64,000 nt of DNA from positions 26,953-90,952 of the forward strand of contig JBBECS010000054.1 of NCBI GenBank assembly GCA_040881685.1, in the 5' to 3' direction. Positions within the stretch are counted from its first letter, which is position 1; each line of letters begins with the position of its first letter. The notes beneath the pieces were generated by a model, which was given only the letters and a program-made list of their open reading frames with translations, had not been told where the DNA came from and ran no database searches. The position numbers were made by a program, and so were the translations under genes. This document shows positions 1 through 46,947 of the stretch, piece after piece. The DNA is from Acidimicrobiia bacterium. GTDB taxonomy: Bacteria > Actinomycetota > Acidimicrobiia > IMCC26256 > PALSA-555.

Positions 1-119
1 GCGTCCTGTGCCTGCCGACCGGGGAGTCGCTGAGCGAGACCGACATCGACCGGATCTGCGACCGCGTCTCGACCATCGCTGCGAACGGCTCAGCAATCGC
101 CGCCCGGCTTGCCTCGTGA
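1..119 (+). CDS. 3' end of a DegT/DnrJ/EryC1-type sugar aminotransferase (5' part lies upstream of the window)
   Basis: Frame 3 reads VLCLPTGESLSETDIDRICDRVSTIAANGSAIAARLAS, then TGA at 117-119. The LP...L..-D-[IV]-D-R-[IV] tail resembles the C-terminus of the complete family member at 32062-33366 (LRLPFYYELREEDIVRIARTI). It is absent from the ORF track because it has no start in the window. Confidence 0.4.
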   Translation, partial: VLCLPTGESLSETDIDRICDRVSTIAANGSAIAARLAS

Positions 120-283
120 GCGCGCTCAGCGCATCTGGACCGGCCTGAGACGGGCAGGGGCCCTCTCTCGACCATCAAAACGCCGAGCGCGCCCTGGTTC
201 GCGTAGGGTTCGTTCACCGTGGGTGTCAAGCGGGGCCGAGACTGCACGGCTTGTCCCATCGGCTTCATCGGGAGGGTGACGCA

Positions 284-1294
284 GTGACGAGACTCTCTTC
301 ATCTGCGACGCGCCCGCGGGCCGTGGCGCTCGCGGCAACGCTCACCCGGCCGGTGCGATGGCGAATCGATGAGTACTCGCGGGTCGGTCCGCTGGTGCGA
401 GGGCACGAGCGCCTCCGCGAACGGCTCGAGCGCCGTGAGGAGCGGCGACTCCTGGCACTGGCGCGTGCCGCGTCGGAGGACATTCGCTCGGCGCAGGAGC
501 GTGAGCCGCTCGTCACGGTCCGCGTCGTCACCTACGACCGCGGTCCCCTGATCGTCGAGCGGGCGCTGTCGTCGATCCTGCGTCAAACCTACGAACGTCT
601 CGAGATCCTGGTGGTTGGCGACTGTTGTGACGAGGTCACTGAGCGCGCAGTGCGTTCGGTGCGTGACCCTCGAGTGCGGTTCGTGAACCTCCCGGTGCGC
701 GGCTCGTACCCGGCCGACCGGCGGCTCCGCTGGATGGTCGCCGGTGCTGCACCGGCGAACGTCGCTCTCGACCTCGCGCGAGGCGCATGGATCGCGCCCT
801 GTGACGACGACGACGAGCTCACCGGCGACCATGTCGAGGTGCTTCTGAGCAAGGCCCTGGACGACCGGCTCGAGCTGGTACACAGCAACGCGCTCATGGA
901 AGCGACTCCGGGTTCGTGGTGGGTCAGTGGGGGTCCGAAACTCGCCGAAGGCGTGGCCCACGGGTCGATCCTCTACTCGAGCAGCCTCCGGTTCATGCGT
1001 TACTCGATGACGAGCTGGAAGAGGGCCGAGCCGGGCGACTGGAACCTCTGGCGGCGGATGCAGGCGATCGGCGTCCACAGCGGGTACCTCGACCGCATCA
1101 CCTACGTCCACTACAAGGGCGTCTACAAGACGCCGGAGCTCGCGCAACTCCCCCCCACGCCGTCTCCGCTCGACGATGGCCGCGTGCCCGATTGGGCGGA
1201 GAAGGCCCCCACCGACCGACACGCCGCCCTTGCTCAACCGGCGGAGTTGGCGGGATCGTCCATGTCAGCAAGCAAGGGCACGGTCAGCACATGA
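284..1294 (+). CDS. Glycosyltransferase family 2 (GT-A fold)
   Basis: LVTVRVVTYDRGPLIVERALSSILRQTYERLEILVVGD is the GT2 N-terminal nucleotide-sugar segment; APCDDDDE is a DXD-type motif. Start placed at GTG 284, 7 nt after GGAGGG (271-276). The track ORF opens at TTG 251. Confidence 0.8.
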   Translation: MTRLSSSATRPRAVALAATLTRPVRWRIDEYSRVGPLVRGHERLRERLERREERRLLALARAASEDIRSAQEREPLVTVRVVTYDRGPLIVERALSSILRQTYERLEILVVGDCCDEVTERAVRSVRDPRVRFVNLPVRGSYPADRRLRWMVAGAAPANVALDLARGAWIAPCDDDDELTGDHVEVLLSKALDDRLELVHSNALMEATPGSWWVSGGPKLAEGVAHGSILYSSSLRFMRYSMTSWKRAEPGDWNLWRRMQAIGVHSGYLDRITYVHYKGVYKTPELAQLPPTPSPLDDGRVPDWAEKAPTDRHAALAQPAELAGSSMSASKGTVST

Positions 1295-1464
1295 CCGCAA
1301 GGGGTACGACCTCTCGCTCCTCACGTCCGCCCCGACGGCGGGCCTAAGTCCGAAGCCCTGGATCCATCTCCACACCAGCCTTGGCACCGTCGGGTCACGT
1401 GGTCGCGCCCTGCCGGCTGGTGGCCGCGGACGGCACGGGCGAGGTACGGCTACACTTTTTCACC

Positions 1465-2166
1465 ATGACTATAGGGATAATGCAGCCCTATTTCTTCCCC
1501 TATATAGGCTATTTTCAGCTGGTGAGAGCGGTCGATGCCTTCGTCATCTATGACAATATTCAATATTCCAAACGGGGATGGATAAATCGGAACCGCTACT
1601 TGCAAAACGGCAAGGACGCCTTTTTTACATTACCGCTCAAGAGCGATTCCGACGTGTTGAATATCAGCGAGAGATACCTCGCAGCATCTTTCGAGCTGGA
1701 CAAGGAAAAGCTGAAGAGAAGAATCGAGGCAGCGTACCAAAAGGCACCAAACTTTGAACAGGCCTACTCTCTCTTCGCCGGATGCTTGGATTTCCCGAAT
1801 CACAATCTCTTTGATTTCTTACTCAATTCCCTCCGTTGTATCAATGACTACCTAGCAATAGATACGAAGTTGGTGATTTCATCAGAGATAGACCAGGGGC
1901 CGCGCCTCCGTGGGCAGCAGCGAGTCATTGCTCTTTGCAAGACCCTCGATGCCGGGGGTTACATGAATCCAATTGGTGGACTTCACTTGTACGACAAGCA
2001 CGCGTTCCGTCAAGAAGGCATACACCTCTCGTTCATCGAAACGCGAGGTGTTGTGTACCGACAGTTTGAGAATGCATTTGTTCCCAACCTTTCAATCCTG
2101 GACGTGCTGATGTTCAATGAGATCGAACAGGTACACGAGATGCTGAAGAGATACGAACTCCGGTGA
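1465..2166 (+). CDS. WbqC-like family protein (copy 1, AT-rich)
   Basis: MTIGIMQPYFFPYIGYFQLV...VIYDNIQYSKRGWINRNR aligns position-for-position with the second copy at 34842 (MRAVITQSNYIPWKGSFDVF...VLYDDVQYTRRDWRNRNK). The pattern matches the WbqC-like family as I remember it. ATG 1465 lies inside the longer TTG-initiated track ORF (1381). Confidence 0.8.
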   Translation: MTIGIMQPYFFPYIGYFQLVRAVDAFVIYDNIQYSKRGWINRNRYLQNGKDAFFTLPLKSDSDVLNISERYLAASFELDKEKLKRRIEAAYQKAPNFEQAYSLFAGCLDFPNHNLFDFLLNSLRCINDYLAIDTKLVISSEIDQGPRLRGQQRVIALCKTLDAGGYMNPIGGLHLYDKHAFRQEGIHLSFIETRGVVYRQFENAFVPNLSILDVLMFNEIEQVHEMLKRYELR

Positions 2167-2816
2167 ACATTGCATTCTATGTCTCTGGTAAAGCAGGGAG
2201 ACTCAAGAAAATTCTCGAGCACGGCAGCGAAGAATTGATCAAGAGCACCAAGTTGATATTTTCTGACGATCGTCAGAATTCCTTCTTAGAGAAGCCTGCA
2301 CTGGGATTGGCAATCGAGTACCACTGCTTGGATTATCAGGCCATACGTAGAACGGATCGATCAAGGAACTTGATCTTGTCGGACGAGCTCTTAGAACTGT
2401 TGAGGCGCCACAGTGTGGAGTACTGCTTTTCCTTTGGCGACCATCTGCTGAAGGGAGAGATTCTGAACGAATACAAGTATAGGCTCATCAACTTTCATCC
2501 CTCCATATTGCCGATGTTTCCCGGAAGGTTGTCCGTAGATCAGGCGGTTGACGCCGGGAGTAATCTCCTTGGTAACACTGCCCACTTTATCGGTCCCGGA
2601 GTCGATGATGGGCCGATCATCATGCAGCATGTAGTCTCCGCCAAAGTCTTCGAAGGCGACTACGACAGCATCCTGGATCAGCAGGTTGTCATGCTCGAGC
2701 AGATATTTGCGTGGCTGCGATCCGGTCGTCTCAGCGTGAACGATGATGAAGTTACGGTCTTCGGGGCGAACTATCAGGGATCAGCGTTCTTCCCGGAGCT
2801 TGAAACCGAGGAGTAA
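2163..2816 (+). CDS. Formyltransferase-fold enzyme (PurN/Fmt/ArnA-N type); candidate sugar N-formyltransferase
   Basis: LINFHPSILPMFPGR...HFIGPGVDDGPIIMQ carries the Asn-His...Asp signature of the formyl_trans_N fold. GTG 2163 overlaps the WbqC stop (GTGA). Confidence 0.75.
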   Translation: MNIAFYVSGKAGRLKKILEHGSEELIKSTKLIFSDDRQNSFLEKPALGLAIEYHCLDYQAIRRTDRSRNLILSDELLELLRRHSVEYCFSFGDHLLKGEILNEYKYRLINFHPSILPMFPGRLSVDQAVDAGSNLLGNTAHFIGPGVDDGPIIMQHVVSAKVFEGDYDSILDQQVVMLEQIFAWLRSGRLSVNDDEVTVFGANYQGSAFFPELETEE

Positions 2817-2827
2817 GACAAGGCATT

Positions 2828-2854
2828 CGATCGTCGCTTGCCGGCTCGACGATC
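2828..2854. terminator. Candidate bidirectional hairpin between convergent genes
   Basis: GATCGTCG (2829-2836) / CGACGATC (2847-2854), an 8-bp stem around a 10-nt loop. It lies between the formyltransferase stop (2816) and the stop of the minus-strand gene (2853-2855). There is no clear U-tract. Confidence 0.3.
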
Positions 2855-4961
2855 ACGACGAGGGCACCGGACGCGCCTTGCGAGCCCTTGTCCGCTGGAC
2901 ACCGACCTTGTACCAACCGTACGGGTACCGCAACCAACCCACACCGGCGGCGCGCATGCGGATCGGCGGCCAGCCGCCGCCAGTCACCAGCCGGCGTGGC
3001 GCGAACAACTGGCCCACGATGCCGAGCGCGCTCGACGGCCCCGTCTTGGGGCGGTAGCCCCTCCGGCGGCGCCCTGCGTCGTACACGGGGAGCTGCTCGA
3101 AGAAGCGGATCTCGGCCGTCGAGGGCCGAAAGAGCATCCGAGCGTGGTACCCGGCGGCGAGGTCTACCAGCTCTTCGTCGTCGAGGGGACTCCGCGCCAG
3201 CTCTCGGCAAAGAAGACGGAAACGCCGCTCGATGCGGTGCTGCACGGGCGCGACATACTGCTCGTACGCCGCACGCTCCTCCGGGATGTCTTCGAGGACC
3301 GGAACCGCGCCTTCGTCACGCCACTCGTAGCCGCGCACGCTCCCGTGGTCGGCCGAGAGCAGGGCCTCGAAAATCGTCTTGAAGTGGGCGAAGACCTCCA
3401 GGTGCGCGGACCGCCAGGGCCAGTTGTGGAACAAGATCCCCTGCTTGGACTCCAGGGCCTCCGGAGGAGCGGCGACAAGCAGCCCCAGGTAGTGCCCTCT
3501 GAGCGCGACTCGTGAGCCGGGAACGAGGACGCGCGCGAGCCGATCTTGGGTGGTTCCCTTCCAACCCACGTCGACGAGGTGCACAACCGGGCGCGCCGAC
3601 CAATCGACGCTCTTGTCGAGGTACTCGAGGAGCGCTTCTCTCTGCTCGACCCGACGTTGCTCGTACTCCTCGGCGAAGGCCGCGTGTGCGAGGACCGCGT
3701 CGAGGTCAAGAGACGTCGAGCCCGCGGGGTCACCGGTCATGGCGGTGGCCAAGCGCTCGAGCGACGCGGCGTCGAAGCCCAGCGTCTCAAGGAACTCCCC
3801 GACGGTCAGGCCGGGTCTCCTCTCGCGGACTGCCTCGAACTCCTCGTGGGGGAGCGGCGGGAGCGACGGCAGATAGGTGGCCCGGCGCGAGACCATGAGG
3901 TAGCTCTGCGTGATCCGCATGGAGCCGGGCAGCGCGGTCTCCTCCTCGTAGGCAGCGAGGAGCCGAGAGAGGAACTGGCCCTCGCGAGCCAGGAAGAGGG
4001 CTTCGCGCGCACCCTCGGCCCGGAGCCGCCGGTGCAGGCGGCGAACGAAGGTGTAGAGGGTGAGCCCCATCGCCGGGAACAGGTCCGCTTCGTCGGCTGG
4101 CCGAAGCAGGCCGTCGAGTTGGCGCTCGACGTCCCTGGCCACCTCGTCGGCTCCAGCGTCCTTCCGCCGCTCCCACGTTCCCTGCGTCACGAGGTGTGAC
4201 CTCATCCCGGCCTCCCTGGCGCGTCGCCCGTCCGAGATGGGGTTGTCCCCGACGACCAAGACGTCCTGTGGGTCGACGCCGACACGCTTCGCGACGAGCT
4301 CGAACAGCGCCCCGCTCTTCTTGGTGCGGCCATGCTCGCACGAGACGAACACGTCGCCGAAGAGATCGGTCAACCCGTGGTGCTCGAGGAACCGGCCGAA
4401 GTGGGGCTGCGGGATGTAGAAGTCGGAGACGAGCACCAGCTCCGCACCGTTGGGTCGCTGGCGGAGCGCCTTTACGAGGGCGACGTCGACTCGCTGCACC
4501 AGGAGGTCCGATTCCACCTCGGCGTCGATCATCAGCGTCGCGAGGCCCTCGGTCGAGTACTCGGCGGTTCGCGAACCACGGCCCGATCGCGCCACGACCT
4601 CCGCGAGCTCGTCGGCGAGGTCGTCGAGTCGGAAGTCGGCGTCGAGACCCTGTTCGAGCGCCCGGTTGCAGAGCCTGCGCTCAACCTCGATGCGTGTTCG
4701 GTACAGGTCGATGGGGTCGACATCGAGGTCGAGCTGCTCCACCAGCCGGCGCCCGGCCAGCAGCTTCACGTACCAAGGAGGGACGGTGCGCGTGACGACG
4801 GTGCCGAAGTAGTCGACAAGGACGACCCGCGGCTTGGCGCCTTCGAGCACCCGGTGCAGGTTCCGAACCGCCAAGCGGCGAGGAAGCCGCCGCTGAGCGG
4901 GCTCGACGAGCCGTTCCCTCAGGAGCGAAGCGACCGACCTGCCTACCGGGACAGAACCCAA
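2853..4961 (-). CDS. HAD-superfamily domain fused to a large uncharacterised C-terminal domain
   Basis: The N-terminal half has HAD-like motifs: VVLVDYFGTVVTR (motif I position), LVLVSDFY, KKSGALFELVAKRVG, and VLVVGDNPISDGRRAREAG (motif IV GDxxxD). I could not assign the C-terminal ~400 aa to any family. Confidence 0.6.
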   Translation of the reverse strand: MGSVPVGRSVASLLRERLVEPAQRRLPRRLAVRNLHRVLEGAKPRVVLVDYFGTVVTRTVPPWYVKLLAGRRLVEQLDLDVDPIDLYRTRIEVERRLCNRALEQGLDADFRLDDLADELAEVVARSGRGSRTAEYSTEGLATLMIDAEVESDLLVQRVDVALVKALRQRPNGAELVLVSDFYIPQPHFGRFLEHHGLTDLFGDVFVSCEHGRTKKSGALFELVAKRVGVDPQDVLVVGDNPISDGRRAREAGMRSHLVTQGTWERRKDAGADEVARDVERQLDGLLRPADEADLFPAMGLTLYTFVRRLHRRLRAEGAREALFLAREGQFLSRLLAAYEEETALPGSMRITQSYLMVSRRATYLPSLPPLPHEEFEAVRERRPGLTVGEFLETLGFDAASLERLATAMTGDPAGSTSLDLDAVLAHAAFAEEYEQRRVEQREALLEYLDKSVDWSARPVVHLVDVGWKGTTQDRLARVLVPGSRVALRGHYLGLLVAAPPEALESKQGILFHNWPWRSAHLEVFAHFKTIFEALLSADHGSVRGYEWRDEGAVPVLEDIPEERAAYEQYVAPVQHRIERRFRLLCRELARSPLDDEELVDLAAGYHARMLFRPSTAEIRFFEQLPVYDAGRRRRGYRPKTGPSSALGIVGQLFAPRRLVTGGGWPPIRMRAAGVGWLRYPYGWYKVGVQRTRARKARPVPSS

Positions 4962-11206: not shown

Positions 11207-12310
11207 TTATTGCAGCATCGCCGAAATGAGGTCGTCCCACGCGTCGGCCACCCGGTCGATGGAGAAACGCTCGAGGCACCGGCGGCGCGCGGCCGACCCG
11301 AGCGCGCTCGGCGCACGCAGCGCGCGCTCCAGCGCGTCGGCGAAGCCCGCCCGATCACCGGGTGGAACGACATAGCCGGTCATGGTGTCGGCGACGATCT
11401 CACGCACGAAGCCGACGTCGGTCGTGACGACGGGGAGGCCGCAGAGGCCCGCTTCGATCAGGGCCCCCGGAAGACCCTCCGTGTGACTGGTGAGCACGAC
11501 GACGTCCGCAGCCGCGAGCGCGAGCTCCGGTTGATCCGTCGGCCCGGCGACGTGCACGCGGTCGGGCGCGACGCGCGATGCCTCGGCCTCCGCTGCAGAT
11601 CGCTCGGGACCGTCGCCGACGACGAGCAGATGAAGCCCGGGGATCGACGCGACGGCCTCGATCGCCAGCCTGACGTTCTTCTCCGGGCTCAGCGCGCCGA
11701 GGTAGAGCGCGACCGGTGCCTCCGCCAAGAGCTCGAAGTGAGCACGGGCGCGCCGACGAGCCTCGGCGGTCGCTGGCGTGAATCGCTCCGTGGGGACACC
11801 CTTTGGGATCACGCGGATCTTCTCCGGCGAAACGCGATAGCGCGCGTTCAGCTCGCCTGCGGTGGCTGCAGTGAGCGCGACGACGGCTGACGTCCGACGC
11901 AGGAAGGCAACGCTTCGGAGCCGGCGGGCGGGGGTCGTACCCCAGTGGGCGGGATCCCCGACGTTGCGGTAGACGAACGGCGTGCGCGTGCCGGTCGTGG
12001 CGAGCGCGCACGCCGGGAGGGTCGTCGAGCCGTGGGCCACGACGAGACCAGCATGGCGAGCTTCGGCTCGCAACGCGCGCAGCGTGGCGATTCCGAGCCG
12101 GCTGGTCCCGAGCGTCGGCACGTCGAGCCCGCCCTCTTGGCGACCGCGCACGAGCGCGACGGTCCGTACCGACCGCCCGCGATCGGTGAGGGCCCGCTCG
12201 AGGTCGGTTGCGAAGACCTCGGCGCCGCGCCGGTCGGTGCTCGTGATCACCTGGAGGACGTCGACCGTGTCAGGTCCGGTCCGCGGCGCCTCGCTCGCTC
12301 GGCGGCTCAT
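11207..12310 (-). CDS. Glycosyltransferase family 4
   Basis: VDVLQVITSTDRRGAEVF..., YLGALSPEKN..., VVVLTSHTEGLPGALIEAGLCGLPVVTTDVG. ATG 12310 overlaps the upstream stop (ATGA). The track ORF extends spuriously to 12976. Confidence 0.8.
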   Translation of the reverse strand: MSRRASEAPRTGPDTVDVLQVITSTDRRGAEVFATDLERALTDRGRSVRTVALVRGRQEGGLDVPTLGTSRLGIATLRALRAEARHAGLVVAHGSTTLPACALATTGTRTPFVYRNVGDPAHWGTTPARRLRSVAFLRRTSAVVALTAATAGELNARYRVSPEKIRVIPKGVPTERFTPATAEARRRARAHFELLAEAPVALYLGALSPEKNVRLAIEAVASIPGLHLLVVGDGPERSAAEAEASRVAPDRVHVAGPTDQPELALAAADVVVLTSHTEGLPGALIEAGLCGLPVVTTDVGFVREIVADTMTGYVVPPGDRAGFADALERALRAPSALGSAARRRCLERFSIDRVADAWDDLISAMLQ

Positions 12311-13269
12311 TGAGCGTCGAGGCCCTCCCCCTCGCCGAGGCGCCACACCCGCTGACCCATCGAGGGCACCCAGGCCGCGGCCAAGCGGGCCCAGCGCCGC
12401 GGCGACCGCGGCTCGGCGCGCACCGCTGCTGCGAGCAGACGTCGGGCCTCGCGACGCTTCCCGATGCGCGCTGCACTGACCCCGGCGATGGAGAGATAGT
12501 TGGCGAGCGCGCGGGGGGAACGACTGATCCGCTCGCGATGATGCTCCAGCACGTACACGACCCCCTCGTACAACAGGGCAGCGGTGCTCAGGGGGCGGTC
12601 GGTGGGCGGGCGTGCCTCGATCTTCACGCCCGGCTCCGCCACGCTCCGTACCTCGAGCCCGAGGTTGAGGCAGTGGGGAACGAGGCGGAACGCGAGCTCG
12701 GTGCCGTGGGTCGTCTGCAGTCCCGGTGCGTAGCCGCCGACGCTCTCGAAGAGCTCGCGACGGACCGCGAAGGTCCCACTGGCGAACGACCCCACCTGGT
12801 CGTCGTACGCCGGGCCGAGAGGCATGGGCTCCTCGGTGCGCAACGGCGCACCTTCCGCGTCGACGACGATGCGACCACAACACACGATCCCGCTGGCCGG
12901 GTCGGCCCGTTCGGCGCGGAAGAGCTCGAGCCAGCACGGCAGCGCCTGGTCGTCGTCGTCGAGGAACGTGAGCCACCGACCACGGGCGATCTGCGCGCCG
13001 GCGTTCCGCGCCGCAGAGAGGCCACCGTTCTGTTGGCGACGAAGACGGATCCGGTCGTCCCGGATCGCCGACACGACGTTCGCCGTATCGTCCGTCGAGC
13101 CGTCGTCGACGACGATGAGCTCGAAATCTGTCACCGTCTGCGCCAGGACGCTGGAGATCGCCCGCGGCACGATCGAGCTGCGGTTGTACGTGGGGATCAC
13201 GACGCTGAACGCGGGCGCACCTGGGGCCGACGCGTGGGCGAGACCCGCGGAACCCTGGTCTTGCATCAT
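12307..13269 (-). CDS. Glycosyltransferase family 2
   Basis: FSVVIPTYNRSSIVPRAISSVLAQTVTDFELIVVDDGSTDDT...NGGLSAARNAG...LDDDD. ATG 13269 overlaps the upstream stop (ATGA). Confidence 0.8.
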   Translation of the reverse strand: MMQDQGSAGLAHASAPGAPAFSVVIPTYNRSSIVPRAISSVLAQTVTDFELIVVDDGSTDDTANVVSAIRDDRIRLRRQQNGGLSAARNAGAQIARGRWLTFLDDDDQALPCWLELFRAERADPASGIVCCGRIVVDAEGAPLRTEEPMPLGPAYDDQVGSFASGTFAVRRELFESVGGYAPGLQTTHGTELAFRLVPHCLNLGLEVRSVAEPGVKIEARPPTDRPLSTAALLYEGVVYVLEHHRERISRSPRALANYLSIAGVSAARIGKRREARRLLAAAVRAEPRSPRRWARLAAAWVPSMGQRVWRLGEGEGLDAQ

Positions 13270-14438
13270 CGGCGTGGGCCGTGGCCGGCCGCGCGGGATA
13301 CCGACGCGAGCGAACGGCGATAGAACGCGACCATGTCGTCGGCCACCTGCCCGATCGTGAAGTCGGCGAGGAAGCGCCGACGAGCGACGTTCACGCGTCG
13401 CTCGGTGGCTCCGCGTTCTCGGAACACACGCGCAATCGAGCGCGCGAGGTGCTCCGGCGGCGAGCTCGGGGCCACGAGAACCGCGCTGGCTTCGTTGACG
13501 ACCTCGCGGATCTGTGGAAGGTCGGTCACGACGATCGGGAGCTCGAGCGCCATCGCCTCCATCACTGACCCCGGCGAGCCTTCGCGGCGCGAGGTCAGCA
13601 CGAAGACATCGGCCGCGCACAACAGATCAGGGACGTCGTCACGACCCCCGAGGAACGTCACCGAGTGACCGAGGCCGAGCCGATCGACGAGCGCGCGGAG
13701 GTCGGTCGTGGCGCCGCCTTCTTGTCCGGCGACGAACAGGTGGATCGCGTCGACGTCGGCCGCCAACGACGGCATCGCTTCGAGGACGACATCGAGGCCC
13801 TTCGCGTGCTCCTGGCGTGCTACCGCCAGCAGGACGCGCGCGTCCGGCGCGAGACCCAGTTGCTCTCGTGCCGTGGCCCGACGCTGCGGTGTCCGAGCGC
13901 CGAGCGAGTCCGGATCTCGGCCGCGCGGTACCACGTCGATGCGGTTTCGCGGATAGCGGAGGTTGTGCGCCATGAGGTCCGCGACGTGCGCGGATACCGC
14001 GTGCAGCCGTACCGCGAGTCGGGCGGTCAGCGCGTCGACGACCTGCGCACCTCGCAGCTTCCAGCGTCGCAGCGCTGGGTTGCTGCGATGGGCGGGTCCG
14101 TAGTGCTCGCTCACGAGGCTCGACACCACGGGTGTCCGCGTGCGGCGCGCGGCGACGCGTCCCGCGAGGTCGCTCTCGAACAAGGTCGTATGGACGAGGT
14201 CCGGGCGTCGCCTTCCGAGCAGTGTCGTCAGGCGTCGCATCCGCTCCATCCGTCTGTTGCCATCGACGAAGTGGAGCATGGCACCCGCGCGCTCAAGGTC
14301 GGCCTGGAGGCCCGGTCGGTCATGCAGGTAGGCGACTTCGAGGTCGACGCCCCGCGCGGCGTAGTGGGGTGCGAGGGCGAGCAGCGAGCGTTCGGCACCA
14401 CCGGGCACGAGGCTGTCGATGACGTACAGAAGACGCAA
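13266..14438 (-). CDS. Glycosyltransferase family 4
   Basis: (L/M)RLLYVIDSLVPGGAERSLL..., VARQEHAKG..., VFVLTSRREGSPGSVMEAMALELPIVVTD. The start is TTG 14438. Confidence 0.8.
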   Translation of the reverse strand: MRLLYVIDSLVPGGAERSLLALAPHYAARGVDLEVAYLHDRPGLQADLERAGAMLHFVDGNRRMERMRRLTTLLGRRRPDLVHTTLFESDLAGRVAARRTRTPVVSSLVSEHYGPAHRSNPALRRWKLRGAQVVDALTARLAVRLHAVSAHVADLMAHNLRYPRNRIDVVPRGRDPDSLGARTPQRRATAREQLGLAPDARVLLAVARQEHAKGLDVVLEAMPSLAADVDAIHLFVAGQEGGATTDLRALVDRLGLGHSVTFLGGRDDVPDLLCAADVFVLTSRREGSPGSVMEAMALELPIVVTDLPQIREVVNEASAVLVAPSSPPEHLARSIARVFRERGATERRVNVARRRFLADFTIGQVADDMVAFYRRSLASVSRAAGHGPRR

Positions 14439-15552: not shown

Positions 15553-16749
15553 TCACCGGTGCTTCGTCCGATTGACCAGCCGCTTGAGCGGGTCTCGGAC
15601 GGTCCGCATGGCCACTCCCAACATGGGGAGGGGGTCGTCGAAAGCGAAGCTCGAGGTGGCTTCGTATCCGACGATGGAACGCAGCCACCGATGGACCGGG
15701 ATGTCATCCTCGCGAGCGGCGACGACGTCCTTCCAGGGTTTGCACCAGCGGGCGCCGATGAGCACCGGGCCAATCGGAGGTCGAGGGGTGCCCGTGAGGT
15801 CGGCGTAGACGAGCGCGGGGATGTTGACACCTGCCACGGCCCCCAGGTGGTGCCAGAGGTTGAAGCGCGGGTTGATCTCGAGCAACCAGAGGCGCCCCTC
15901 CGGATCGCGCTTGAAATCCGCCTTGGCCACACCCGTGAGACCGAGGGCATGTGTGACCTTCCGCCCGAGCTCCTTCACGTCGGTCTCGTCGGTGATCGTC
16001 ACCGCCGTCGACTCGCCGAACATGCGGGGCAGCGTCCTGATCTTCCGGCCCGTGAACTCGGCCACGATCTGGCGTCGATCGTCGATGTAGACGTGATAAC
16101 TCTCCACATGCGTCTCCCCACCGGGGATGAGCTCCTGGACCATCACGGTGGCACCGCGCGCCTCGAGACTGCCCCAGAGCTCCGCGAGCCCGCCGGCGTC
16201 GGGTACCTCGAGGGCCTTGGCTGCGCCGGCGACCGACCTCCAGAGTTCGTCCATGTGCCGGCATGGCTTCACGACGACCGGGAACCGAAGTGCCCGCAGA
16301 TCGAGGTCGGAGACGCCGGGAGCCAGCACCTCAGCGCGCGGCACCGGAAGGTCGTGAGTCCGCGCCACCGCTCCGAGGCGGGCCTTGTCGATGAGAACCT
16401 CGACGAGATCGGCGCTCGGAACCACGAACCGAAAGCCTTCCTGCAACCGTTCTCGGTGCCGCGAGATCATGAGAAGTTCGGGATCCCCTTGGTAGAAGAG
16501 AACCGGCGGCAACTTCTGCCGCCCAGCCCAGGCCGAGAGTCGCTCGACAAGGAGTTCCTGCTCGCTCCACGGATCGATGACCCAGTCGATCGCGTCTCGG
16601 CGAAACCGGGAGAAGCGGGGAGGCTTCCATCGCTGGGTGACGACAGCGCCGCGGATCCCGGCCAGAAAGAGTGGGCGGACGAGATCCATGTCACCGATCA
16701 CGCAGGCCTGTGTTCCCTCGGCTCCGCGGCGGGCGCCTGACCTAGCCAC
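15553..16749 (-). CDS. ATP-grasp domain protein (second one in the region)
   Basis: FPVVVKPCRH..., MVQELIPGGETHVESYHVYID..., LTGVAKADFKRDPEGRLWLLEINPRFNLWHHL. Start uncertain: GTG 16749 would overlap the PHP gene stop by 8 nt; the alternative is ATG 16689. Confidence 0.75.
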   Translation of the reverse strand: MARSGARRGAEGTQACVIGDMDLVRPLFLAGIRGAVVTQRWKPPRFSRFRRDAIDWVIDPWSEQELLVERLSAWAGRQKLPPVLFYQGDPELLMISRHRERLQEGFRFVVPSADLVEVLIDKARLGAVARTHDLPVPRAEVLAPGVSDLDLRALRFPVVVKPCRHMDELWRSVAGAAKALEVPDAGGLAELWGSLEARGATVMVQELIPGGETHVESYHVYIDDRRQIVAEFTGRKIRTLPRMFGESTAVTITDETDVKELGRKVTHALGLTGVAKADFKRDPEGRLWLLEINPRFNLWHHLGAVAGVNIPALVYADLTGTPRPPIGPVLIGARWCKPWKDVVAAREDDIPVHRWLRSIVGYEATSSFAFDDPLPMLGVAMRTVRDPLKRLVNRTKHR

Positions 16750-17452
16750 TCCTGCCTGCCAACTCCAACGCCTTGTGCTTGACGAAACGCCGAGCCTGGT
16801 AGCCGACGACGCGCGGCCGCCGGCGCTTCCATCCGTAGATCGCCTCGGCCACGGCGACGTCACTCGTGCGAGTCGGCACCGGGACGGGACAGGTCGCATC
16901 GGCTCGGAGCACGACCAGCGGATCCGGGCCGTCCGGATAGTCGACGAACCAGCGAGCCTCGCGCTTCAGATGGGCGTCGGATCCGAACGCGACCGCCTTA
17001 CCGTGGCGCGCGCAGAGCTCGATCGCCTCGCGATTCTCCTCGCGGTTGCAACGCGAGTTGAACACCTCGATCACGTCGGCGCCCGCGGCCAGCTCCTCGA
17101 TCTCCTTGTGGCTCCGGTATGGGTGAGGCAGCCAGACCATGGCCCCGTACTCGCGAGCGAGGACTCGGAGCGAGCGCCACGTCTTCAGATCGGACACCGG
17201 AGGGACCTCCTCCGAGGGGAACACCACGATCACGTCGCCGAGATCGGTACGAATCTCCGCGGCGACGGGCACGATCAGGGGCAGCCCCTGCCTCCCCACG
17301 ATCGACCGTGCCTCGAGGCTCCCGGCGAAGGAGTCGTGGTCGGTGATCATTGCCAGGTCGACAGCGTTGGCCCGCAGCACCCGGAGCAAGACAGGTACCC
17401 GGAGTCGGCTGTCCCAGGAATGACGCGTGTGGATGTGGGTGATCGCTCGCAT
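16742..17452 (-). CDS. PHP-domain metal-dependent phosphoesterase
   Basis: MRAITHIHTRHSWDS...LAMITDHDS...VWLPHPYR...FGSDAHL are the His/Asp metal-ligand clusters of the PHP fold. ATG 17452 abuts the upstream stop (17453-55) with no spacer. Confidence 0.75.
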   Translation of the reverse strand: MRAITHIHTRHSWDSRLRVPVLLRVLRANAVDLAMITDHDSFAGSLEARSIVGRQGLPLIVPVAAEIRTDLGDVIVVFPSEEVPPVSDLKTWRSLRVLAREYGAMVWLPHPYRSHKEIEELAAGADVIEVFNSRCNREENREAIELCARHGKAVAFGSDAHLKREARWFVDYPDGPDPLVVLRADATCPVPVPTRTSDVAVAEAIYGWKRRRPRVVGYQARRFVKHKALELAGRSG

Positions 17453-18628
17453 CTACTCGTTGCTCAAGCGCTCCCCGTGGAGCGTCTCAGGACGCCGGGT
17501 GGGTTCCGCCGCCGGCGAACGCCGGACGCGCCGGTGGCGCCGCCGGAGCGACCGGGCGGCGCGGGTCCGCCCACGGTCGAGGCGGCCAGGGACGCCTCGT
17601 CTCGAGAGCATGGCGGCGAGCAACGTGCGCTCGCCGTTCGCCCATCGTCGTTTGTATTCCTGCCCCCCGCGCATGAAGTCGACCTCGGTAATCCCTCGCT
17701 GCAACGCGTCCGCGATGGCGCGATGGTTCACGAGCTGACCGGGGCTGAACTCGCCGTAGTCGGGGTCGAACGCGCCCTTGAGCATGTAGAGCCGCGAGCG
17801 GTACTCCAGATCGAGCTCGACGGCGATCGGGCGCCCGTCGGCGCTGAGGGTCAGGAGCCGGGTGCGGCCGACGATGTCCAGGGCACGGATGGCATCGAGG
17901 AGGAAGCGCTCCGACGCGGGGTCGGCCAGCAAACCCTGGAGGCGATCGGTCTCCCCCGCCCACCGCCGACGGTGGACCTCGAGGAACGCGTCGAGGCCGG
18001 CCTCCAGACGCCCGTGGGTGTGGTGCTCGAAGACCACCTCTCGATGTCGCTCCTCGAGCCGCCGGAGACGCTGGCCGATCTTGTGCCGCTTCGCCGCCTT
18101 GCGCAGGTCGAACCCGGCGGTTGCGTCCGTGTACGGGCACGAACCGTCGAGCGGCACCTCCGAGTAGCCGATCCCCGGAACGCCGCGAAGGCTGCGGCGC
18201 AGGAACTCGACGAAATGACTGTCGGCCACCAGTCGCGAGAAGACCACCGGGTGTCCCCGGCTCGTGGCGACCTCCTCGAGGTGGCCAAGCAGCAACGCCA
18301 CCGCCTCCTCCTCGCGCCGCACCAGGACGATGCCTCCATAGTCACCCGCGTCGTGGCTCACCGACTCGAAGAAGGTGCCGACCACGGGGCCCACGCCCAC
18401 GCGCGAACGCATCAACGGGGCAGTCGCCACGAGATCGTCGCGCTCCCACATGGTGATGACGTGCAACTGCGCCGCGGCCCCGAAATGCTCCCACCACGTC
18501 CGCAACCACTCCCACGTCAGGAACACGTTGGCATCGACGCTCGCGTCGCACGCCGCGTTCCACGGCGCGCGCAATCGATCGAACTCCGCGACATCGCTCA
18601 CGACGCGCAGCTCGAGCGGGGTACTCAT
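17453..18628 (-). CDS. CelD/BcsL / FemAB-like GNAT-fold acyltransferase, paralogue A
   Basis: MSTPLELRVVSDVAEFDRLRAPWN...NVFLTWEWLRTWWEHFG...LEVHRRRWAG...EVDFMRGGQEYKRRWANG. This pattern matches the ~380-aa Acetyltransf_6-type family as I remember it. It has a 14-aa longer, R-rich C-terminus than B and C. Confidence 0.75.
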   Translation of the reverse strand: MSTPLELRVVSDVAEFDRLRAPWNAACDASVDANVFLTWEWLRTWWEHFGAAAQLHVITMWERDDLVATAPLMRSRVGVGPVVGTFFESVSHDAGDYGGIVLVRREEEAVALLLGHLEEVATSRGHPVVFSRLVADSHFVEFLRRSLRGVPGIGYSEVPLDGSCPYTDATAGFDLRKAAKRHKIGQRLRRLEERHREVVFEHHTHGRLEAGLDAFLEVHRRRWAGETDRLQGLLADPASERFLLDAIRALDIVGRTRLLTLSADGRPIAVELDLEYRSRLYMLKGAFDPDYGEFSPGQLVNHRAIADALQRGITEVDFMRGGQEYKRRWANGERTLLAAMLSRRGVPGRLDRGRTRAARSLRRRHRRVRRSPAAEPTRRPETLHGERLSNE

Positions 18629-18632
18629 GTGT

Positions 18633-19766
18633 TCACCGCCCTAACCGCGAAGCACCCGACGGCGAAAGCCGGAGCCGCCGTTGCAGCGACCGGGCGATAC
18701 GAAGCCGCTGGCGGTCGGATCGCCCCGCCAGTCCAGCACGCGTGAGTGTCGCGGCAACCAAGGTCCGCTCACCGTTGGCCCACCCTCGCTTGTACTCCTG
18801 TCCGCCGCGCATGAAGTCGTACTCGGTGACACCGCGCTGCATTGCGTCTTCGATCGCCCGTTTGCGCAGCAGCCAGCCCGGGCTGAACTCGGCGAACTCC
18901 GGGTCGAACGCGACCTTGAGCATGTAGAGGCGTGCGCGGTACTCCAGGTCGAGCTCGACCGCGATCGGGCGCCCGTCGGCGGTCAACGTCAGGAGTCGTG
19001 CACGACCGATCTGGTCAAGGGCTCGGATCGCGTCGAGGAGGAACTGCTCCGACGCCGGATCTGCCAGAAGCCCCCGGAGGCGATCGGTCTCCCCCGCCCA
19101 CCGCCGACGGTGGACCTCGAGGAACGCATCGAGACCGGCCTCCAGGCACTCGTGGGTGCGGTGCTCGAAGACCACGTCGGGGTGGCGCTCCTCGAGTCGC
19201 CGGAGCCGCTGCGTGACCCGGTGCTTCTTCGTCAGCTTCTCGAACTCGAAGCCGGCGGTGAAGTCGATGAACGGACATGCACCGTCGAGCGGCACCTCCG
19301 TGCAAGCGAGCGTCGGCACCGAGGCCAGTCGCCGTCGCAGGTGCTCGACGAACCGGCTGTCGGCCACGAGCCGCGAGAGCAGCACCGGGCTACGCCGACT
19401 CGTCGCCACGTCCTCAAAGTGCGCGAGCAGCAATGCCACTGCTTCCTCCTCGCGCCGCACCAGGACGACGCCGCCATAGTCGCCGGCGTCGTGGCACACC
19501 GACTGAAACAGCGTGCCCTCCACCGGCCCCACGCCGACCCGCGAACGCATCAATGGCGCCGCCGCCACGAGCTCATCGCGCTCCCACAGCGTCACCACGT
19601 GCAACTGCGCCGCGGCCCCGAAATGCTCCCACCACGTCCGCAACCACTCCCACGTCAGGAACACGTTGGCATCGACGCTCGCGTCGCACGCCGCGTTCCA
19701 CGGCGCGCGCAATCGATCGAACTCCGCGACATCGCTCACGACGCGCAGCTCGAGCGGGGTACTCAT
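18633..19766 (-). CDS. CelD/BcsL / FemAB-like GNAT-fold acyltransferase, paralogue B
   Basis: Its first ~55 aa are identical to A. Residues ~56-180 and the C-terminal tail (SLQRRLRLSPSGASRLGR) are identical to C. A 4-nt spacer separates it from the start of A. Confidence 0.75.
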   Translation of the reverse strand: MSTPLELRVVSDVAEFDRLRAPWNAACDASVDANVFLTWEWLRTWWEHFGAAAQLHVVTLWERDELVAAAPLMRSRVGVGPVEGTLFQSVCHDAGDYGGVVLVRREEEAVALLLAHFEDVATSRRSPVLLSRLVADSRFVEHLRRRLASVPTLACTEVPLDGACPFIDFTAGFEFEKLTKKHRVTQRLRRLEERHPDVVFEHRTHECLEAGLDAFLEVHRRRWAGETDRLRGLLADPASEQFLLDAIRALDQIGRARLLTLTADGRPIAVELDLEYRARLYMLKVAFDPEFAEFSPGWLLRKRAIEDAMQRGVTEYDFMRGGQEYKRGWANGERTLVAATLTRAGLAGRSDRQRLRIARSLQRRLRLSPSGASRLGR

Positions 19767-19770
19767 GTGT

Positions 19771-20901
19771 TCACCGCCCTAACCGCGAAGCACCCGACGG
19801 CGAAAGCCGGAGCCGCCGTTGCAGCGACCGGACGACGCGGAGCCTCTGGCGGTCCCGGCGACCAGCCGGCCCGGCGCGCGTGAGCGTCGCCGCGACCAAG
19901 GTCCGCTCACCGTTGGCCCACCGCCGCTTGTACTCCTGTCCGCCGCGCATGAAGTCGTACTCGGTGACATCGCGCTGCAATGCGTCTTCGATCGCCCGCT
20001 TCCGCAGCAGCCAGCCGGGACCGTACTCGGCGAACTCAGGATCGAACGCGACCTTGAGGTTGTAGAGGCGCGCGCGGTACTCGAGGTCGAGCTCGACCGC
20101 GATCGGACGCTGCCCGGCATTGAGGCTGAGGAGCCGTACCCGGCCGATGCAATCGAGGTTCCGGATGGCATCGAGGAGGAAGCGCTCCGACGCCGCATCG
20201 GCGAGCATGCCGCGGAGACGCTCGGTCTTTCCGGCCCAGCGTCGTCGGTGGACGTCAAGGAATGCCTCGAAACCGGCGTCCAGACGCGCACCGGTGTGAT
20301 GCTCGAAGCACAAGTCGCGATGTCGCTCCTCGAGGCGCCGGAGAAGCCGCGGGATATCCCGCTTCTTCGTCAGCTTCTCGAACTCGAAGCCGGCGGTGAA
20401 GTCGATGAACGGACATGCACCGTCGAGCGGCACCTCCGTGCAAGCGAGCGTCGGCACCGAGGCCAGTCGCCGTCGCAGGTGCTCGACGAACCGGCTGTCG
20501 GCCACGAGCCGCGAGAGCAGCACCGGGCTACGCCGACTCGTCGCCACGTCCTCAAAGTGCGCGAGCAGCAATGCCACTGCTTCCTCCTCGCGCCGCACCA
20601 GGACGACGCCGCCATAGTCGCCGGCGTCGTGGCACACCGACTGAAACAGCGTGCCCTCCACCGGCCCCACGCCGACCCGCGAACGCATCAATGGCGCCGC
20701 CGCCACGAGCTCATCGCGCTCCCACAGCGTCACCACGTGCAACTGCGCCGCGGCCCCGAAATGCTCCCACCACGTCCGCAACCACTCCCACGTCAGGAAC
20801 ACGTTGGCATCGACGCTCGCGTCGGCCGCCGCGTTCCACGGCGCGCGCAATCGATCGAACTCCACGACATCGCTCACGACACGCAACTCGAGCCGGTTCA
20901 C
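19771..20901 (-). CDS. CelD/BcsL / FemAB-like GNAT-fold acyltransferase, paralogue C
   Basis: Starts at GTG 20901 (VNRLELRVVSDV), overlapping the stop of the GNAT gene (GTGA). The middle third is the most divergent part (KKRDIPRLLRRLEERHRDLCFEHHTGARLDAGFEAFLDVH). Confidence 0.75.
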   Translation of the reverse strand: MNRLELRVVSDVVEFDRLRAPWNAAADASVDANVFLTWEWLRTWWEHFGAAAQLHVVTLWERDELVAAAPLMRSRVGVGPVEGTLFQSVCHDAGDYGGVVLVRREEEAVALLLAHFEDVATSRRSPVLLSRLVADSRFVEHLRRRLASVPTLACTEVPLDGACPFIDFTAGFEFEKLTKKRDIPRLLRRLEERHRDLCFEHHTGARLDAGFEAFLDVHRRRWAGKTERLRGMLADAASERFLLDAIRNLDCIGRVRLLSLNAGQRPIAVELDLEYRARLYNLKVAFDPEFAEYGPGWLLRKRAIEDALQRDVTEYDFMRGGQEYKRRWANGERTLVAATLTRAGPAGRRDRQRLRVVRSLQRRLRLSPSGASRLGR

Positions 20902-26688: not shown

Positions 26689-26996
26689 GCGGTTCCCTCC
26701 ACGTCGGCACGATGACCGGCTCCGTGTACGAGCTGGCGGTCGACGAACGTCGCCAGTCGCTCGACCGAGTCCAGGTTGTCGGCGATGAGATCTTCCTCGT
26801 CGATCTCGAGCGCGAAGGTCTCCTCCAAGAAAGCCACGATCTCCATGACGCCGGTCGAGTCGATGACGCCGGACTCGATCAGTGAATCCGCGTCGCCAAA
26901 TCCGTCGTCGTCCCCGAACAGGAAGCTCTCGACGATGTACGCGTGGATCCGCGCCGCCGTACCGAGCTCGTAACCTCCGTCCGGCGAATTGGTCAA
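26682..26996 (-). CDS. Acyl/peptidyl carrier protein (DltC-like phosphopantetheine attachment site)
   Basis: DSLIESGVIDSTGVMEIVAFLEETFALEI matches the carrier-protein helix II with the Ser attachment site (G-x-x-D-S). TTG 26996 is preceded by GAGGAGAGG 8 nt upstream. Confidence 0.75.
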   Translation of the reverse strand: MTNSPDGGYELGTAARIHAYIVESFLFGDDDGFGDADSLIESGVIDSTGVMEIVAFLEETFALEIDEEDLIADNLDSVERLATFVDRQLVHGAGHRADVEGTAS

Positions 26997-27179
26997 CGGT
27001 CACGCCTCTCCTCGCGGCACACGTCGGACCGTCCCGCGATGCGCGCCCATCTCGCCGGGAGGACGTTACCACTCCCCGCGGCTGGCCTTCGACGCTGAAC
27101 GCGCTGCGTGAGCACCGAGGGCGCGCCTAATGTGGCAGACGCGCTCGCCAGACCGAACCGAGGGCAAGGAGGAGGCTGG

Positions 27180-31986: not shown

Positions 31987-32061
31987 CGAATCATGAACGG
32001 CACCAACAGTCTCTACGACAACGAGAGTCTCGCCACGGGGGCCTCGGGCTCTGATTTCTCG

Positions 32062-33366: not shown

Positions 33367-33401
33367 GGAAGCCTCTTCTTACGCTCCGAGATACGCGGGG
33401 G

Positions 33402-34403: not shown

Positions 34404-34649
34404 GCCGGCCTCCCTGCCTTGTGCATGTGTCCCGATGCTGACACAGCAATCTCACTCAGCGCAAGTTGATGAGCCGCCGTAACCACGCTGCGTGACAAGA
34501 AACCGTCGTCAATGGCCCGTCAAGCGCGAGGAAGACCAACAACAGCGGTCGAGCCAAAGGCCCGTCACCAGCGGGCGTCGTCGGCTCTCCTGCTCGGTCT
34601 TGAGACGAGCGTCGTAGTGTAGGGCACCGACCGTTGTACTCGTGCTCGA

Positions 34650-34825: not shown

Positions 34826-34841
34826 GCAAAAAGAGCAAGCG

Positions 34842-46901: not shown

Positions 46902-46947
46902 GGTGGCGTCGCCATCATGCGGGGTGGGGGCGTGCGACGATGGGGGC

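Follow-up and report, generated by a model that had tools for sequence, protein, structure and literature searches.

The two overlapping genes at positions 1465-2816 of the window, by which we mean the whole 64-kb stretch of DNA analysed here, are jointly best explained as a horizontally acquired cassette in which a WbqC-family gene is translationally coupled to a gene for a PurN-like formyltransferase, a reading to which we give a probability of roughly 78%. Sequence comparisons make acquisition from a lower-GC, non-actinobacterial source well supported, and the donor, which would have been non-actinobacterial and of intermediate to low G+C (~45-55%), looks mid-GC rather than strictly low-GC. 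The cassette landed in a locus for cell-envelope glycans in an acidimicrobial genome, at the 3' end of an operon of resident genes (deacetylase, aminotransferase, the DegT/DnrJ/EryC1-type aminotransferase of 400 aa that we call DegT400, and a family-2 glycosyltransferase, GT2).

The island has 48.9% G+C against 67.5% elsewhere in the window, about 9 standard deviations below all other 1352-nt segments (mean 67.5%, sd 2.0%, minimum 61.1%). An earlier note on this DNA had described an abrupt drop in G+C from counts made by hand, which are exact (25/60 at 1501-1560 and 45/60 at 12001-12060), and it was also right that the dip covers exactly two overlapping genes (ORFs 1465-2166 and 2163-2816) and that composition recovers within tens of nucleotides at each end. 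The 40-nt G+C steps from 0.85 (1401-1440) to 0.42 (1441-1480) on the left and from 0.50 (2801-2840) to 0.72 (2841-2880) on the right. On the left, the high-GC spacer downstream of GT2 (1295-1447) gives way to the AT-rich leader ctacactttttcacc (1448-1464, + strand), which precedes the ATG and marks the left boundary of the foreign DNA; on the right, the boundary lies in a 36-nt spacer (2817-2852) that separates the convergent formyltransferase and HAD-fusion genes. The same note had stated that island codons mostly end in A or T, which proved wrong, since 60-64% of them end in G or C (GC3 0.60 for WbqC and 0.63 for the formyltransferase), although the flanking genes, at 0.81-0.86, lie far higher. 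The biggest deficits fall at codon positions 1 and 2, with GC1 of 0.52-0.54 against 0.71-0.74 in flanking genes and GC2 of 0.31-0.33 against 0.47-0.52. The island genes would be short of host equilibrium, with GC3 perhaps partly shifted and positions 1 and 2 and the amino acids still foreign.

Both gene identities proposed from the sequence were borne out by Pfam. The first gene (1465-2166, + strand, 233 aa, 48% G+C) matches the WbqC family (PF08889) over its full length (E 2e-66; 224.5 bits, cut-off 21.3; residues 7-224 on model positions 1-217 of 218). Its N-terminus, MTIGIMQPYFFPYIGYF, agrees with the family consensus, and the protein carries 42/42 invariant columns of a 36-sequence alignment, among them the IMQPYFFPYxGYF N-terminus, W39, R42-N43-R44 and S62-D63. 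With the family, which is named from an O-antigen cluster gene, it thus shares a full-length, high-scoring match, the conserved N-terminal motif and the glycan-locus context. Its AlphaFold model (pLDDT 94) has an alpha/beta fold. Searches by sequence or profile found no relatives in the PDB, and the sole likeness to a solved structure is weak (BshC, 4wbd; Foldseek E 4e-3, TM 0.40). WbqC proteins, of which there are thousands of homologues, have been termed functionally uncharacterised (PMC5532660), and we found no characterised member in the literature.

The second gene (2163-2816, + strand, 217 aa, 50% G+C), whose start overlaps the WbqC stop by 4 nt (GTGA), encodes a PurN-like N10-formyl-tetrahydrofolate-dependent formyltransferase (PF00551, Formyl_trans_N; E 4e-18; 66.2 bits, gathering score 26.1). 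The catalytic Asn-His-Asp triad is intact, N110, H112 and D148 corresponding to N106, H108 and D144 of E. coli PurN in a HMMER alignment to 1c2t, and these three residues are invariant in 30 formyltransferase homologues. PurN (GAR transformylase) is the best-scoring solved relative and agrees with the island enzyme in length, fold family and catalytic triad; among PDB entries, GAR transformylases give E-values of 1e-16 to 1e-14, against only ~3e-4 for PseJ and GDP-perosamine formyltransferase. However, true purN genes are only ~26-28% identical to the island gene, the phosphate loop reads SGKAGRLKK instead of the SGNGSNLQA of E. coli PurN, and the score against the PurN equivalog model TIGR00639 (72.8 bits) falls well below its cut-off of 150.1. 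The enzyme is encoded in a glycan locus and not in a purine operon, its neighbours being glycosyltransferases, aminotransferases, HAD hydrolases and a methyltransferase with no purine-biosynthesis genes among them. Curated NCBIfam models of sugar formyltransferases were not matched either (NF005755, 16.8 against 238; NF005998 for ArnA, 24.6 against 777).

The closest homologues of both genes lie in unrelated taxa. In a scan of one genome for each of 185,579 species, in which the source species itself is not among the matches, the best formyltransferase relatives come from Clostridiales, Pedobacter, Bergeyella, Verrucomicrobiae, Lachnospiraceae and similar groups at no more than 49% identity, and the best 80 matches include no Actinomycetota. 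The nearest metagenomic homologues are 55-63% identical, on contigs that have 39-48% G+C or belong to non-actinobacterial hosts or to hosts of an inferred 31-54% G+C. The best WbqC homologues are 52-58% identical and non-actinobacterial, the named ones being from Pedobacter, Anaerohalosphaeraceae, Lachnospiraceae, Spirochaetia and Imperialibacter. Judged by amino-acid composition, the nearest 20 formyltransferase and 40 WbqC matches belong to hosts of 31-54% G+C, none above 60%. The homologue search that the earlier note had proposed thus gave matches from non-actinobacterial or 31-54% G+C hosts, and not the high-GC actinobacterial genes of similar composition that it had named as evidence against transfer. 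The tree topology itself does not resolve a donor: in a neighbour-joining tree with 100 bootstraps, the branches around the window sequence received 7-23%, too little to fix its sister group.

Across 54-58 homologues, gene GC3 and GC1+2 follow the G+C of the flanking DNA (r 0.88-0.92), and family members in hosts of 60-73% G+C have GC3 of 0.62-0.93. Low G+C is thus no inherent property of the family, whose members are high-GC in high-GC hosts, and because gene composition follows host composition, the island is out of equilibrium. Calibrated on these homologues, the composition of the window genes implies a host of 50-57% G+C, and this within-family comparison of gene with host corrects the naive notion of a low-GC donor to a mid-GC one. 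We consider it very improbable that the genes are instead long-resident and, rather than being incompletely ameliorated, held AT-rich by selection acting through weak expression, through silencing by a nucleoid protein that binds AT-rich DNA, or through properties of the mRNA or its translation. Such selection would agree with a second high-GC context (contig L099) that shows the same contrast, with the fixation of the pair across all strain-level assemblies, and with GC3 values of 0.60-0.64 that only modestly exceed what GC1+2 predicts within the family (z 1.2-2.0). Against it, homologues are host-like in Longimicrobiales (73% G+C), Opitutaceae (62%) and Verrucomicrobiae (60%), and the window itself carries outside the island a second, resident WbqC-family gene (34842-35543, + strand; PF08889, E 2e-73), 25% identical to the island protein, which serves as a comparison point and is host-like in composition (GC1/2/3 0.60/0.42/0.88). 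Host-like homologues and a resident paralogue with GC3 of 0.88 show that the family tolerates high G+C; in addition, the amino-acid composition of the island is foreign too, and the pair is absent at the syntenic site of four relatives.

The genes on both sides of the island are native. GT2 (251-1294, + strand; PF00535; 68% G+C, GC3 0.81) is the last resident + strand gene of the operon ahead of the island, and the gene beyond it, HAD702 (2853-4961, - strand; 69% G+C), encodes a 702-aa HAD-hydrolase fusion with Pfam HAD domains. Upstream, the 3' end of DegT400 occupies positions 1-119 (+ strand); a contig that reaches further upstream than the window (L007) contains the complete gene at its positions 12996-14198, and its composition is host-like (GC1/2/3 0.68/0.46/0.89). 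A further aminotransferase gene, DegT391, also lies upstream of the island in the same operon.

Homologues of HAD702 with 52-62% identity were found on five contigs (L010, L011, L093, L094, L095). In four relatives of 66-72% G+C (L010, L011, L094, L095), the HAD702 homologue is followed directly by a GT2 homologue 67-75% identical to that of the window, and neither WbqC nor formyltransferase stands between them in any of the four (4/4). One of them (L094) additionally keeps the deacetylase and then DegT391 upstream. Aligning orthologous loci, as had been suggested, therefore yielded an approximate empty site, and the AT-rich pair is not conserved at this position across the lineage, whereas conservation there would have counted against transfer. 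In the relatives HAD702 lies upstream of GT2 and is co-directional with it, whereas in the window it is inverted and the island lies in between. These relatives are distant (52-75% protein identity) as well as rearranged with respect to the window, so that the gain of the pair can neither be dated nor placed on a tree. Single-protein scans of genome contigs and metagenome contigs gave no relatives of HAD702, an alignment-based metagenome scan added nothing beyond L010, and the spacer 1295-1447 showed no homology to the relatives' loci past the GT2 C-terminus.

The source is a metagenome-assembled genome, and composition-discordant segments are a classic sign of chimeric joining, in this case of lower-GC reads to an acidimicrobial contig during assembly or binning. 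We regard such an artefact as extremely unlikely. Contigs assembled separately from SRR27977658, SRR27977660 and SRR27977662, as well as the deposited MAG(s), carry identical junctions flanked by 6-32 kb, and the segment stops within tens of bases of the ends of its genes, in an operon whose function it matches. This locus was retrieved with the WbqC and HAD702 proteins; the formyltransferase, looked up as an exact sequence, returned no record. At 99.7-99.98% identity, the junctions are shared by at least three assemblies made independently (three sequencing runs), so that they are not chimeric, and the formyltransferase cluster includes four NCBI Acidimicrobiia MAG accessions.

Of the earlier proposal of a recent transfer from a low-GC donor, the transfer stands, on the empty site, the foreign homologues and the composition, while the low-GC donor gives way to the implied 50-57% G+C and the recent date finds no support. 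No homologue exceeds 63% identity, all strain-level assemblies seen carry the pair as a fixed feature, and L099 shows the same contrast in another high-GC host; the acquisition could thus be older, or the pair could have been relayed from one high-GC host to another. In a relay, the immediate donor would itself have been high-GC and would already have held a module of WbqC, formyltransferase and a DegT400-type gene, the first two AT-rich, and the step out of a low- or mid-GC lineage would predate arrival in this genome. This seems unlikely to us, though L099 does carry the closest formyltransferase (63% identity, 52% G+C), followed immediately by a DegT400-like gene (64% identity, 64% G+C, GC3 0.82). 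The neighbour-joining tree pairs the window formyltransferase with that of L099, but weakly (bootstrap 23%), and homologues from other phyla are as close (formyltransferase 58-63%, DegT400 56-60%). DegT400 is missing from the relatives' syntenic position; yet the native GT2, 67-75% identical to those of the relatives, stands between DegT400 and the pair, so the module did not arrive as one contiguous piece or was rearranged later. Several observations also count against direct acquisition of the pair as a foreign cassette, which we still prefer: DegT400, the presumed partner, has a fully host-like composition and is absent from that position; the contrast on L099 means that the pair may have stayed AT-rich in high-GC hosts or passed between them; the relatives with the empty site are distant and rearranged; and the 63% identity of the closest homologue means that there is no near-identical donor.

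The island bears no trace of a mobile element, as the earlier note had remarked. No tRNA is present in the 64 kb, domains of integrases or transposases were not detected in the genes called or scanned over ~10 kb on each side, and no convincing direct repeat or target-site duplication brackets the island. It shares with classical genomic islands the sharp compositional break and the absence from relatives, but it differs from integrative islands in lacking integrase, transposase, tRNA target and direct repeats and in measuring only 1.4 kb. From the lack of integrase, transposase, tRNA and target duplication we infer that integration relied on illegitimate recombination or on recombination at short homologies; the import would have comprised the two reading frames and ~17 nt of leader alone, and a rearrangement of the locus in the same event would have inverted the adjacent HAD-fusion gene. 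Close homologues of either gene were absent from 72,556 plasmids and 50,697 phage records: the plasmid matches were true purN genes only (26-28% identity), and the phage search gave a single 44% WbqC match on an unannotated fragment. An imperfect inverted repeat has its left arm in the high-GC spacer (1392-1434) and its right arm at 2973-3015, with a score reached by 1/300 same-geometry placements in a local null. The left arm was considered as a decayed 3' end of HAD702, but the match falls short of significance (37.5% over 40 aa, E 0.003) and stands among spurious matches that are just as weak. At the right edge there is an 8-bp palindromic stem (2829-2836/2847-2854), and the hairpin 2829-2854 was rejected as a terminator, its fold being no more stable than shuffles (z 0.99). 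Scans detected neither promoter nor terminator at the island edges, and the island is probably expressed by read-through from the GT2 operon.

Surface-polysaccharide loci are known hot spots for the import of sugar-tailoring genes, and low-GC genes in O-antigen and capsule loci, such as enterobacterial rfb/wb*, are textbook cases of laterally gained glycan genes. This transfer is ordinary in kind, with an unusually clean contrast in composition. As in rfb/wb* loci, sugar-tailoring genes well below genome G+C and patchy among relatives lie, likewise without integrase or transposase, between conserved glycan genes in a polysaccharide locus. The difference is that only a two-gene piece of 1.37 kb is aberrant here, the rest of the locus being host-like, and that the host is a high-GC member of the Acidimicrobiia (Actinomycetota) known only from metagenomes. 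The case documents cross-phylum import of glycan genes into a poorly studied, mostly uncultured class, with an approximate empty site surviving.

Family chemistry and conserved gene order suggest a function: the island pair and the adjacent aminotransferase probably make an N-formylated amino sugar. A DegT-type aminotransferase would produce an NDP-amino-deoxy sugar, DegT400 being the probable supplier of the amino-sugar substrate; the formyltransferase would transfer the formyl group of N10-formyl-tetrahydrofolate to the amine of the sugar or of its substituent; WbqC would perform an obligatorily linked step of the same pathway; and the product would enter a surface polysaccharide and alter its structure. 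Among 57 loci with a formyltransferase of at least 37% identity, WbqC lies within 6 kb in 47 and directly upstream in 26, and a DegT gene lies within 4 kb in 37. The order DegT, WbqC, formyltransferase occurs on two contigs (L006 and L096), and homologues of DegT400 (56-64% identity) adjoin WbqC genes, formyltransferase genes or both, on L099 and in other phyla. The island enzyme shares the PF00551 domain and triad with known amino-sugar N-formylation pathways (FdtB/FdtF, QdtB/QdtF, VioA/VioF, WbkC, WlaRD, the ArnA N-terminal domain, PseJ), as well as the linkage to glycosyltransferases and to DegT-type aminotransferases, here DegT400 and DegT391 upstream in a glycan locus. It differs in being single-domain and PurN-like, and whereas those pathways do not use WbqC, the island-type enzyme is nearly always paired with a WbqC gene. 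The pair acts as a minimal portable unit, acquired without the usual aminotransferase, and this portability narrows the hypotheses for the function of the WbqC family.

A bolder extension, which we offer as speculative, is that DegT aminotransferase, WbqC and PurN-like formyltransferase form an uncharacterised cross-phylum pathway of amino-sugar tailoring in which WbqC catalyses a new step. If this were true, the island would be a natural experiment, showing the WbqC-formyltransferase pair to be portable with a resident aminotransferase. The data are compatible with two candidate roles for WbqC. It could be a non-cupin keto-sugar isomerase or epimerase in the position of FdtA/QdtA in the classical pathways, or a BshC-like ligase that puts an aminoacyl group (e.g. 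glycyl) on the sugar amine; with such a ligase, the added aminoacyl group would next be formylated by the PurN-like enzyme, in a reaction analogous to that on GAR. Within the same pathway, the resident module of the window would have a hexapeptide acyltransferase in place of the formyltransferase; the ORF downstream of the resident WbqC paralogue encodes a hexapeptide-repeat acyltransferase (Hexapep repeats).

The WbqC-family gene (1465-2166, + strand) and the PurN-like formyltransferase gene (2163-2816, + strand) form an island of 48.9% G+C, whereas the remaining windows of this length (1352 nt) in the 64 kb have a mean of 67.5% (sd 2.0%, minimum 61.1%). The earlier note had reported a drop covering exactly these two genes, and we found it to be real and correctly placed; its hand counts (25/60 G+C at 1501-1560 and 45/60 at 12001-12060) were exact on recount. 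The edges are sharp in 40-nt windows, with G+C falling from 0.85 (1401-1440) to 0.42 (1441-1480) on the left and rising from 0.50 (2801-2840) to 0.72 (2841-2880) on the right, indicating that foreign-looking DNA runs from about 17 nt 5' of the ATG (1465) into the 36-nt spacer past the TAA (2814-2816). The statement that island codons mostly end in A/T was wrong, as the two genes have GC3 values of 0.60 and 0.63 (flanking genes, 0.81-0.86); the largest deficit lies at codon positions 1 and 2. Two far weaker dips (55-59% G+C) were seen inside host-like genes, at 32000-32600 in the 3' part of a DegT gene (32062-33366) and at 51000-51300 in an MFS transporter gene (50548-52500).

Such an island could be the product of a chimeric contig, but this is very unlikely because three sequencing runs, assembled independently, all yielded this locus with identical island junctions (99.74-99.985% identity over 6.5-13 kb). 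Moreover, the formyltransferase is identical to proteins from Acidimicrobiia metagenome-assembled genomes (four NCBI accessions, contigs up to 357 kb). On the near-identical contig L007, which reaches upstream of the window, the + strand operon order is polysaccharide deacetylase, DegT391, DegT400 (two DegT-type aminotransferases), GT2, WbqC and formyltransferase, and convergent genes on the opposite strand encode a 702-aa HAD-fusion protein, a methyltransferase, a GT4, a HAD protein, an ATP-grasp protein and a priming sugar transferase. Every gene of this locus apart from the pair has 63-72% G+C. Comparison with L007 and a second near-identical contig, L008, showed that the 4 distinct mismatches along 13,114 nt (1518, 2644, 2652 and 2696) all lie in the island, which makes up 1.35 kb (10%) of the comparison (clustering ~1e-4, simple binomial); 6 of the 17 mismatches against a third, L005, also fall inside it (1656-2582). 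Two neighbouring strain differences in the formyltransferase, K161R and E164K, are non-synonymous. Possible causes of these island differences are selection that is relaxed or diversifying, a short tract of recombination, or consensus noise from a strain mixture.

Homology searches pointed away from the host. The best WbqC matches are 52-58% identical, the named ones coming from Pedobacter, Anaerohalosphaeraceae, Lachnospiraceae, Spirochaetia and Imperialibacter, and the formyltransferase subfamily is much smaller (225 matches, the best at 55-63% identity). A scan of one genome per species (185,579 species) yielded 183 formyltransferase relatives, the best 80 of which belong to Clostridiales, Bacteroidota, Verrucomicrobiota, Lachnospiraceae, Balneolaceae, Helicobacteraceae and similar groups; none of these 80 exceeds 49% identity and none is from Actinomycetota. 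The source organism's own protein, which would match at 100%, is missing from the matches in this collection, meaning that the collection has no genome of the species or has one without the island. The contigs with the nearest metagenomic homologues have 38.6% (L001), 45.1% (L096) and 47.6% (L006) G+C, and a proxy for host G+C based on amino-acid composition, calibrated on 54-57 loci (r 0.86-0.90), gave 35-54% for the nearest 20 formyltransferase matches and 31-43% for the nearest 40 WbqC matches, none exceeding 60%. Low G+C is not intrinsic to the family: GC3 and GC1+2 of the homologues follow flanking G+C (r 0.88-0.92), and the composition of members matches that of the host in Longimicrobiales (73%), Opitutaceae (62%) and Verrucomicrobiae (60%). 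In-family regressions place the island genes in a genome of 50-51% G+C by positions 1+2 and 55-57% by position 3, with GC3 lying 1.2-2.0 sd above what GC1+2 predicts. The proposal of a low-GC donor thus holds for the foreign, lower-GC affinity of the genes and has to be softened as to the donor itself, since these compositions would fit either a mid-GC genome or a somewhat lower-GC one followed by partial amelioration. A donor of 30-40% G+C with no change since transfer does not fit the regressions.

The HAD-fusion protein has few homologues, all on contigs of 66-72% G+C. In four distant relatives (L010, L011, L094 and L095) its homologue (52-62% identity) is directly followed by a GT2 homologue (67-75%) on the same strand, and WbqC, the formyltransferase and a DegT400 orthologue are absent at this site; this arrangement implies an ancestral adjacency that was broken in the window's lineage. 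L094 retains the deacetylase (65%) and DegT391 (62%) directly upstream, and L010 runs on into ABC transporter genes that sit further upstream in the window's lineage. In the window, the HAD-fusion gene (2853-4961, - strand) is inverted relative to GT2 (251-1294, + strand) and the pair lies between their 3' ends. The relatives' junction is an approximate empty site, whose breakpoints are not readable at base resolution given the distance to these relatives and the additional rearrangement of the locus. The four relatives give the order deacetylase, DegT391, HAD-fusion, GT2 and ABC transporter as ancestral; window 1-4961 together with L007 13115-20262 reads deacetylase, DegT391, DegT400, GT2, island and inverted HAD-fusion; the ABC transporter genes now lie upstream in reversed orientation. 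DegT400 is fully host-like in composition, though it has no orthologue at the relatives' site. The foreign matches, their low- to mid-GC hosts and the empty site together show that the nearest homologues are not high-GC actinobacterial genes and that the AT-rich pair is not conserved at this position across the lineage, the two outcomes that the earlier note had set against a transfer.

We conclude that an Acidimicrobiia glycan locus has genuinely gained, by horizontal transfer, a cleanly delimited cassette of two genes for amino-sugar tailoring. Transfers of this kind are well known, and the remaining interest attaches to the function of WbqC and to its portability as a unit with the formyltransferase. 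How the cassette was inserted is not apparent from the sequence: as originally noted, there is no tRNA in the 64-kb window, no integrase or transposase among neighbouring genes and no direct repeat flanking the island. The one unusual structure is an inverted repeat of 43 nt around the island, imperfect (74% complementary), whose arms lie at 1392-1434 and 2973-3015, the right arm falling within the 3' end of the HAD-fusion coding sequence; among 300 control placements of the same geometry in other parts of the window, only 1 scored as high. The repeat may be a trace of an inversion accompanying insertion, or chance in GC-rich DNA. The left arm as a decayed copy of the HAD-fusion 3' end was not significant at the protein level.

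While acquisition itself stands, the claim that it was recent is weakened. No near-identical donor was found, none of the strain-level assemblies lacks the pair, and the closest formyltransferase homologue (63% identity, 52% G+C), at 22-681 of L099, a short contig from an unrelated sample, lies directly upstream of a DegT400-like aminotransferase gene (797-1816, 64% identical, 64% G+C), so that the same contrast appears in a second high-GC host. A neighbour-joining tree pairs the two formyltransferases at 23% bootstrap. With these observations, independent imports into both hosts, a relay of the pair between high-GC hosts and a long persistence of AT-richness in such hosts may each apply and are not separable.

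The full-length WbqC-family protein (PF08889, E 2e-66) and the formyltransferase (Formyl_trans_N, PF00551, E 4e-18) are encoded by ORFs overlapping by 4 bases (GTGA), as is typical of translational coupling. The best solved relatives of the formyltransferase are GAR transformylases (PurN; E 1e-16 to 1e-14), and characterised sugar formyltransferases match far more weakly (~3e-4); its score of 72.8 bits is below the PurN equivalog cut-off (150.1 bits), and it also falls under the cut-off of every curated sugar-formyltransferase model tested. Residues N110, H112 and D148 align to catalytic N106, H108 and D144 of E. coli PurN and are invariant across 30 homologues, suggesting that the protein is most likely an active N10-formyl-tetrahydrofolate transferase. 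For WbqC, sequence and profile searches gave no relative of solved structure, and the literature found holds no characterised member, calling the family just uncharacterised. Its predicted model (pLDDT 94, alpha/beta fold) resembles only BshC in the PDB, and weakly (E 4e-3, TM 0.40).

Among 57 loci with a formyltransferase of at least 37% identity, WbqC lies within 6 kb in 47 (directly upstream on the same strand in 26) and a DegT-type aminotransferase within 4 kb in 37. L006 and L096 carry the order DegT, WbqC, formyltransferase, and in several phyla the pair occurs together with DegT400-like genes (56-64%). Window 32062-36213 contains another amino-sugar module, a resident one, made up of a DegT aminotransferase (32062-33366, -), a GT2 (33402-34403, -), a WbqC paralogue of host composition (34842-35543, +; GC3 0.88) that shares 25% identity with the island WbqC, and, ending at 36213 (+), a hexapeptide-repeat acyltransferase, so that WbqC partners an acetyltransferase-type enzyme there and a formyltransferase in the island. 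From these linkages and the resident module we infer a pathway in which the DegT-type aminotransferase would make an NDP-amino-deoxy sugar, the N-acylating enzyme would cap an amine (with formyl in the island, probably acetyl in the resident module) and WbqC would perform a linked step independent of the acyl group used. WbqC could be either isomerase-like, in the position of FdtA/QdtA, or a BshC-like ligase. No promoter-like site was found in the 170-nt spacer 5' of WbqC, which makes read-through from GT2 the simplest model for how the island would be expressed.

Elsewhere in the window, an Acetyltransf_6 (FemAB-like GNAT) domain is present in all three of a tandem set of paralogous genes (17453-20964, -; 391, 377 and 397 aa). 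They are adjoined by genes for an ATP-grasp protein (15553-16899), an asparagine synthase (23041-25113) and an AMP-binding enzyme (25156-27072), a grouping suggestive of a glycan or cell-wall polymer decorated with peptide or aminoacyl groups. Finally, a 1270-aa fusion (46726-50538, +) joins 2-oxoacid dehydrogenase acyltransferase (E2) and 2-oxoglutarate dehydrogenase E1 domains, which we take to be the OdhA/Kgd-type architecture typical of Actinomycetota and which is consistent with the taxonomic assignment.
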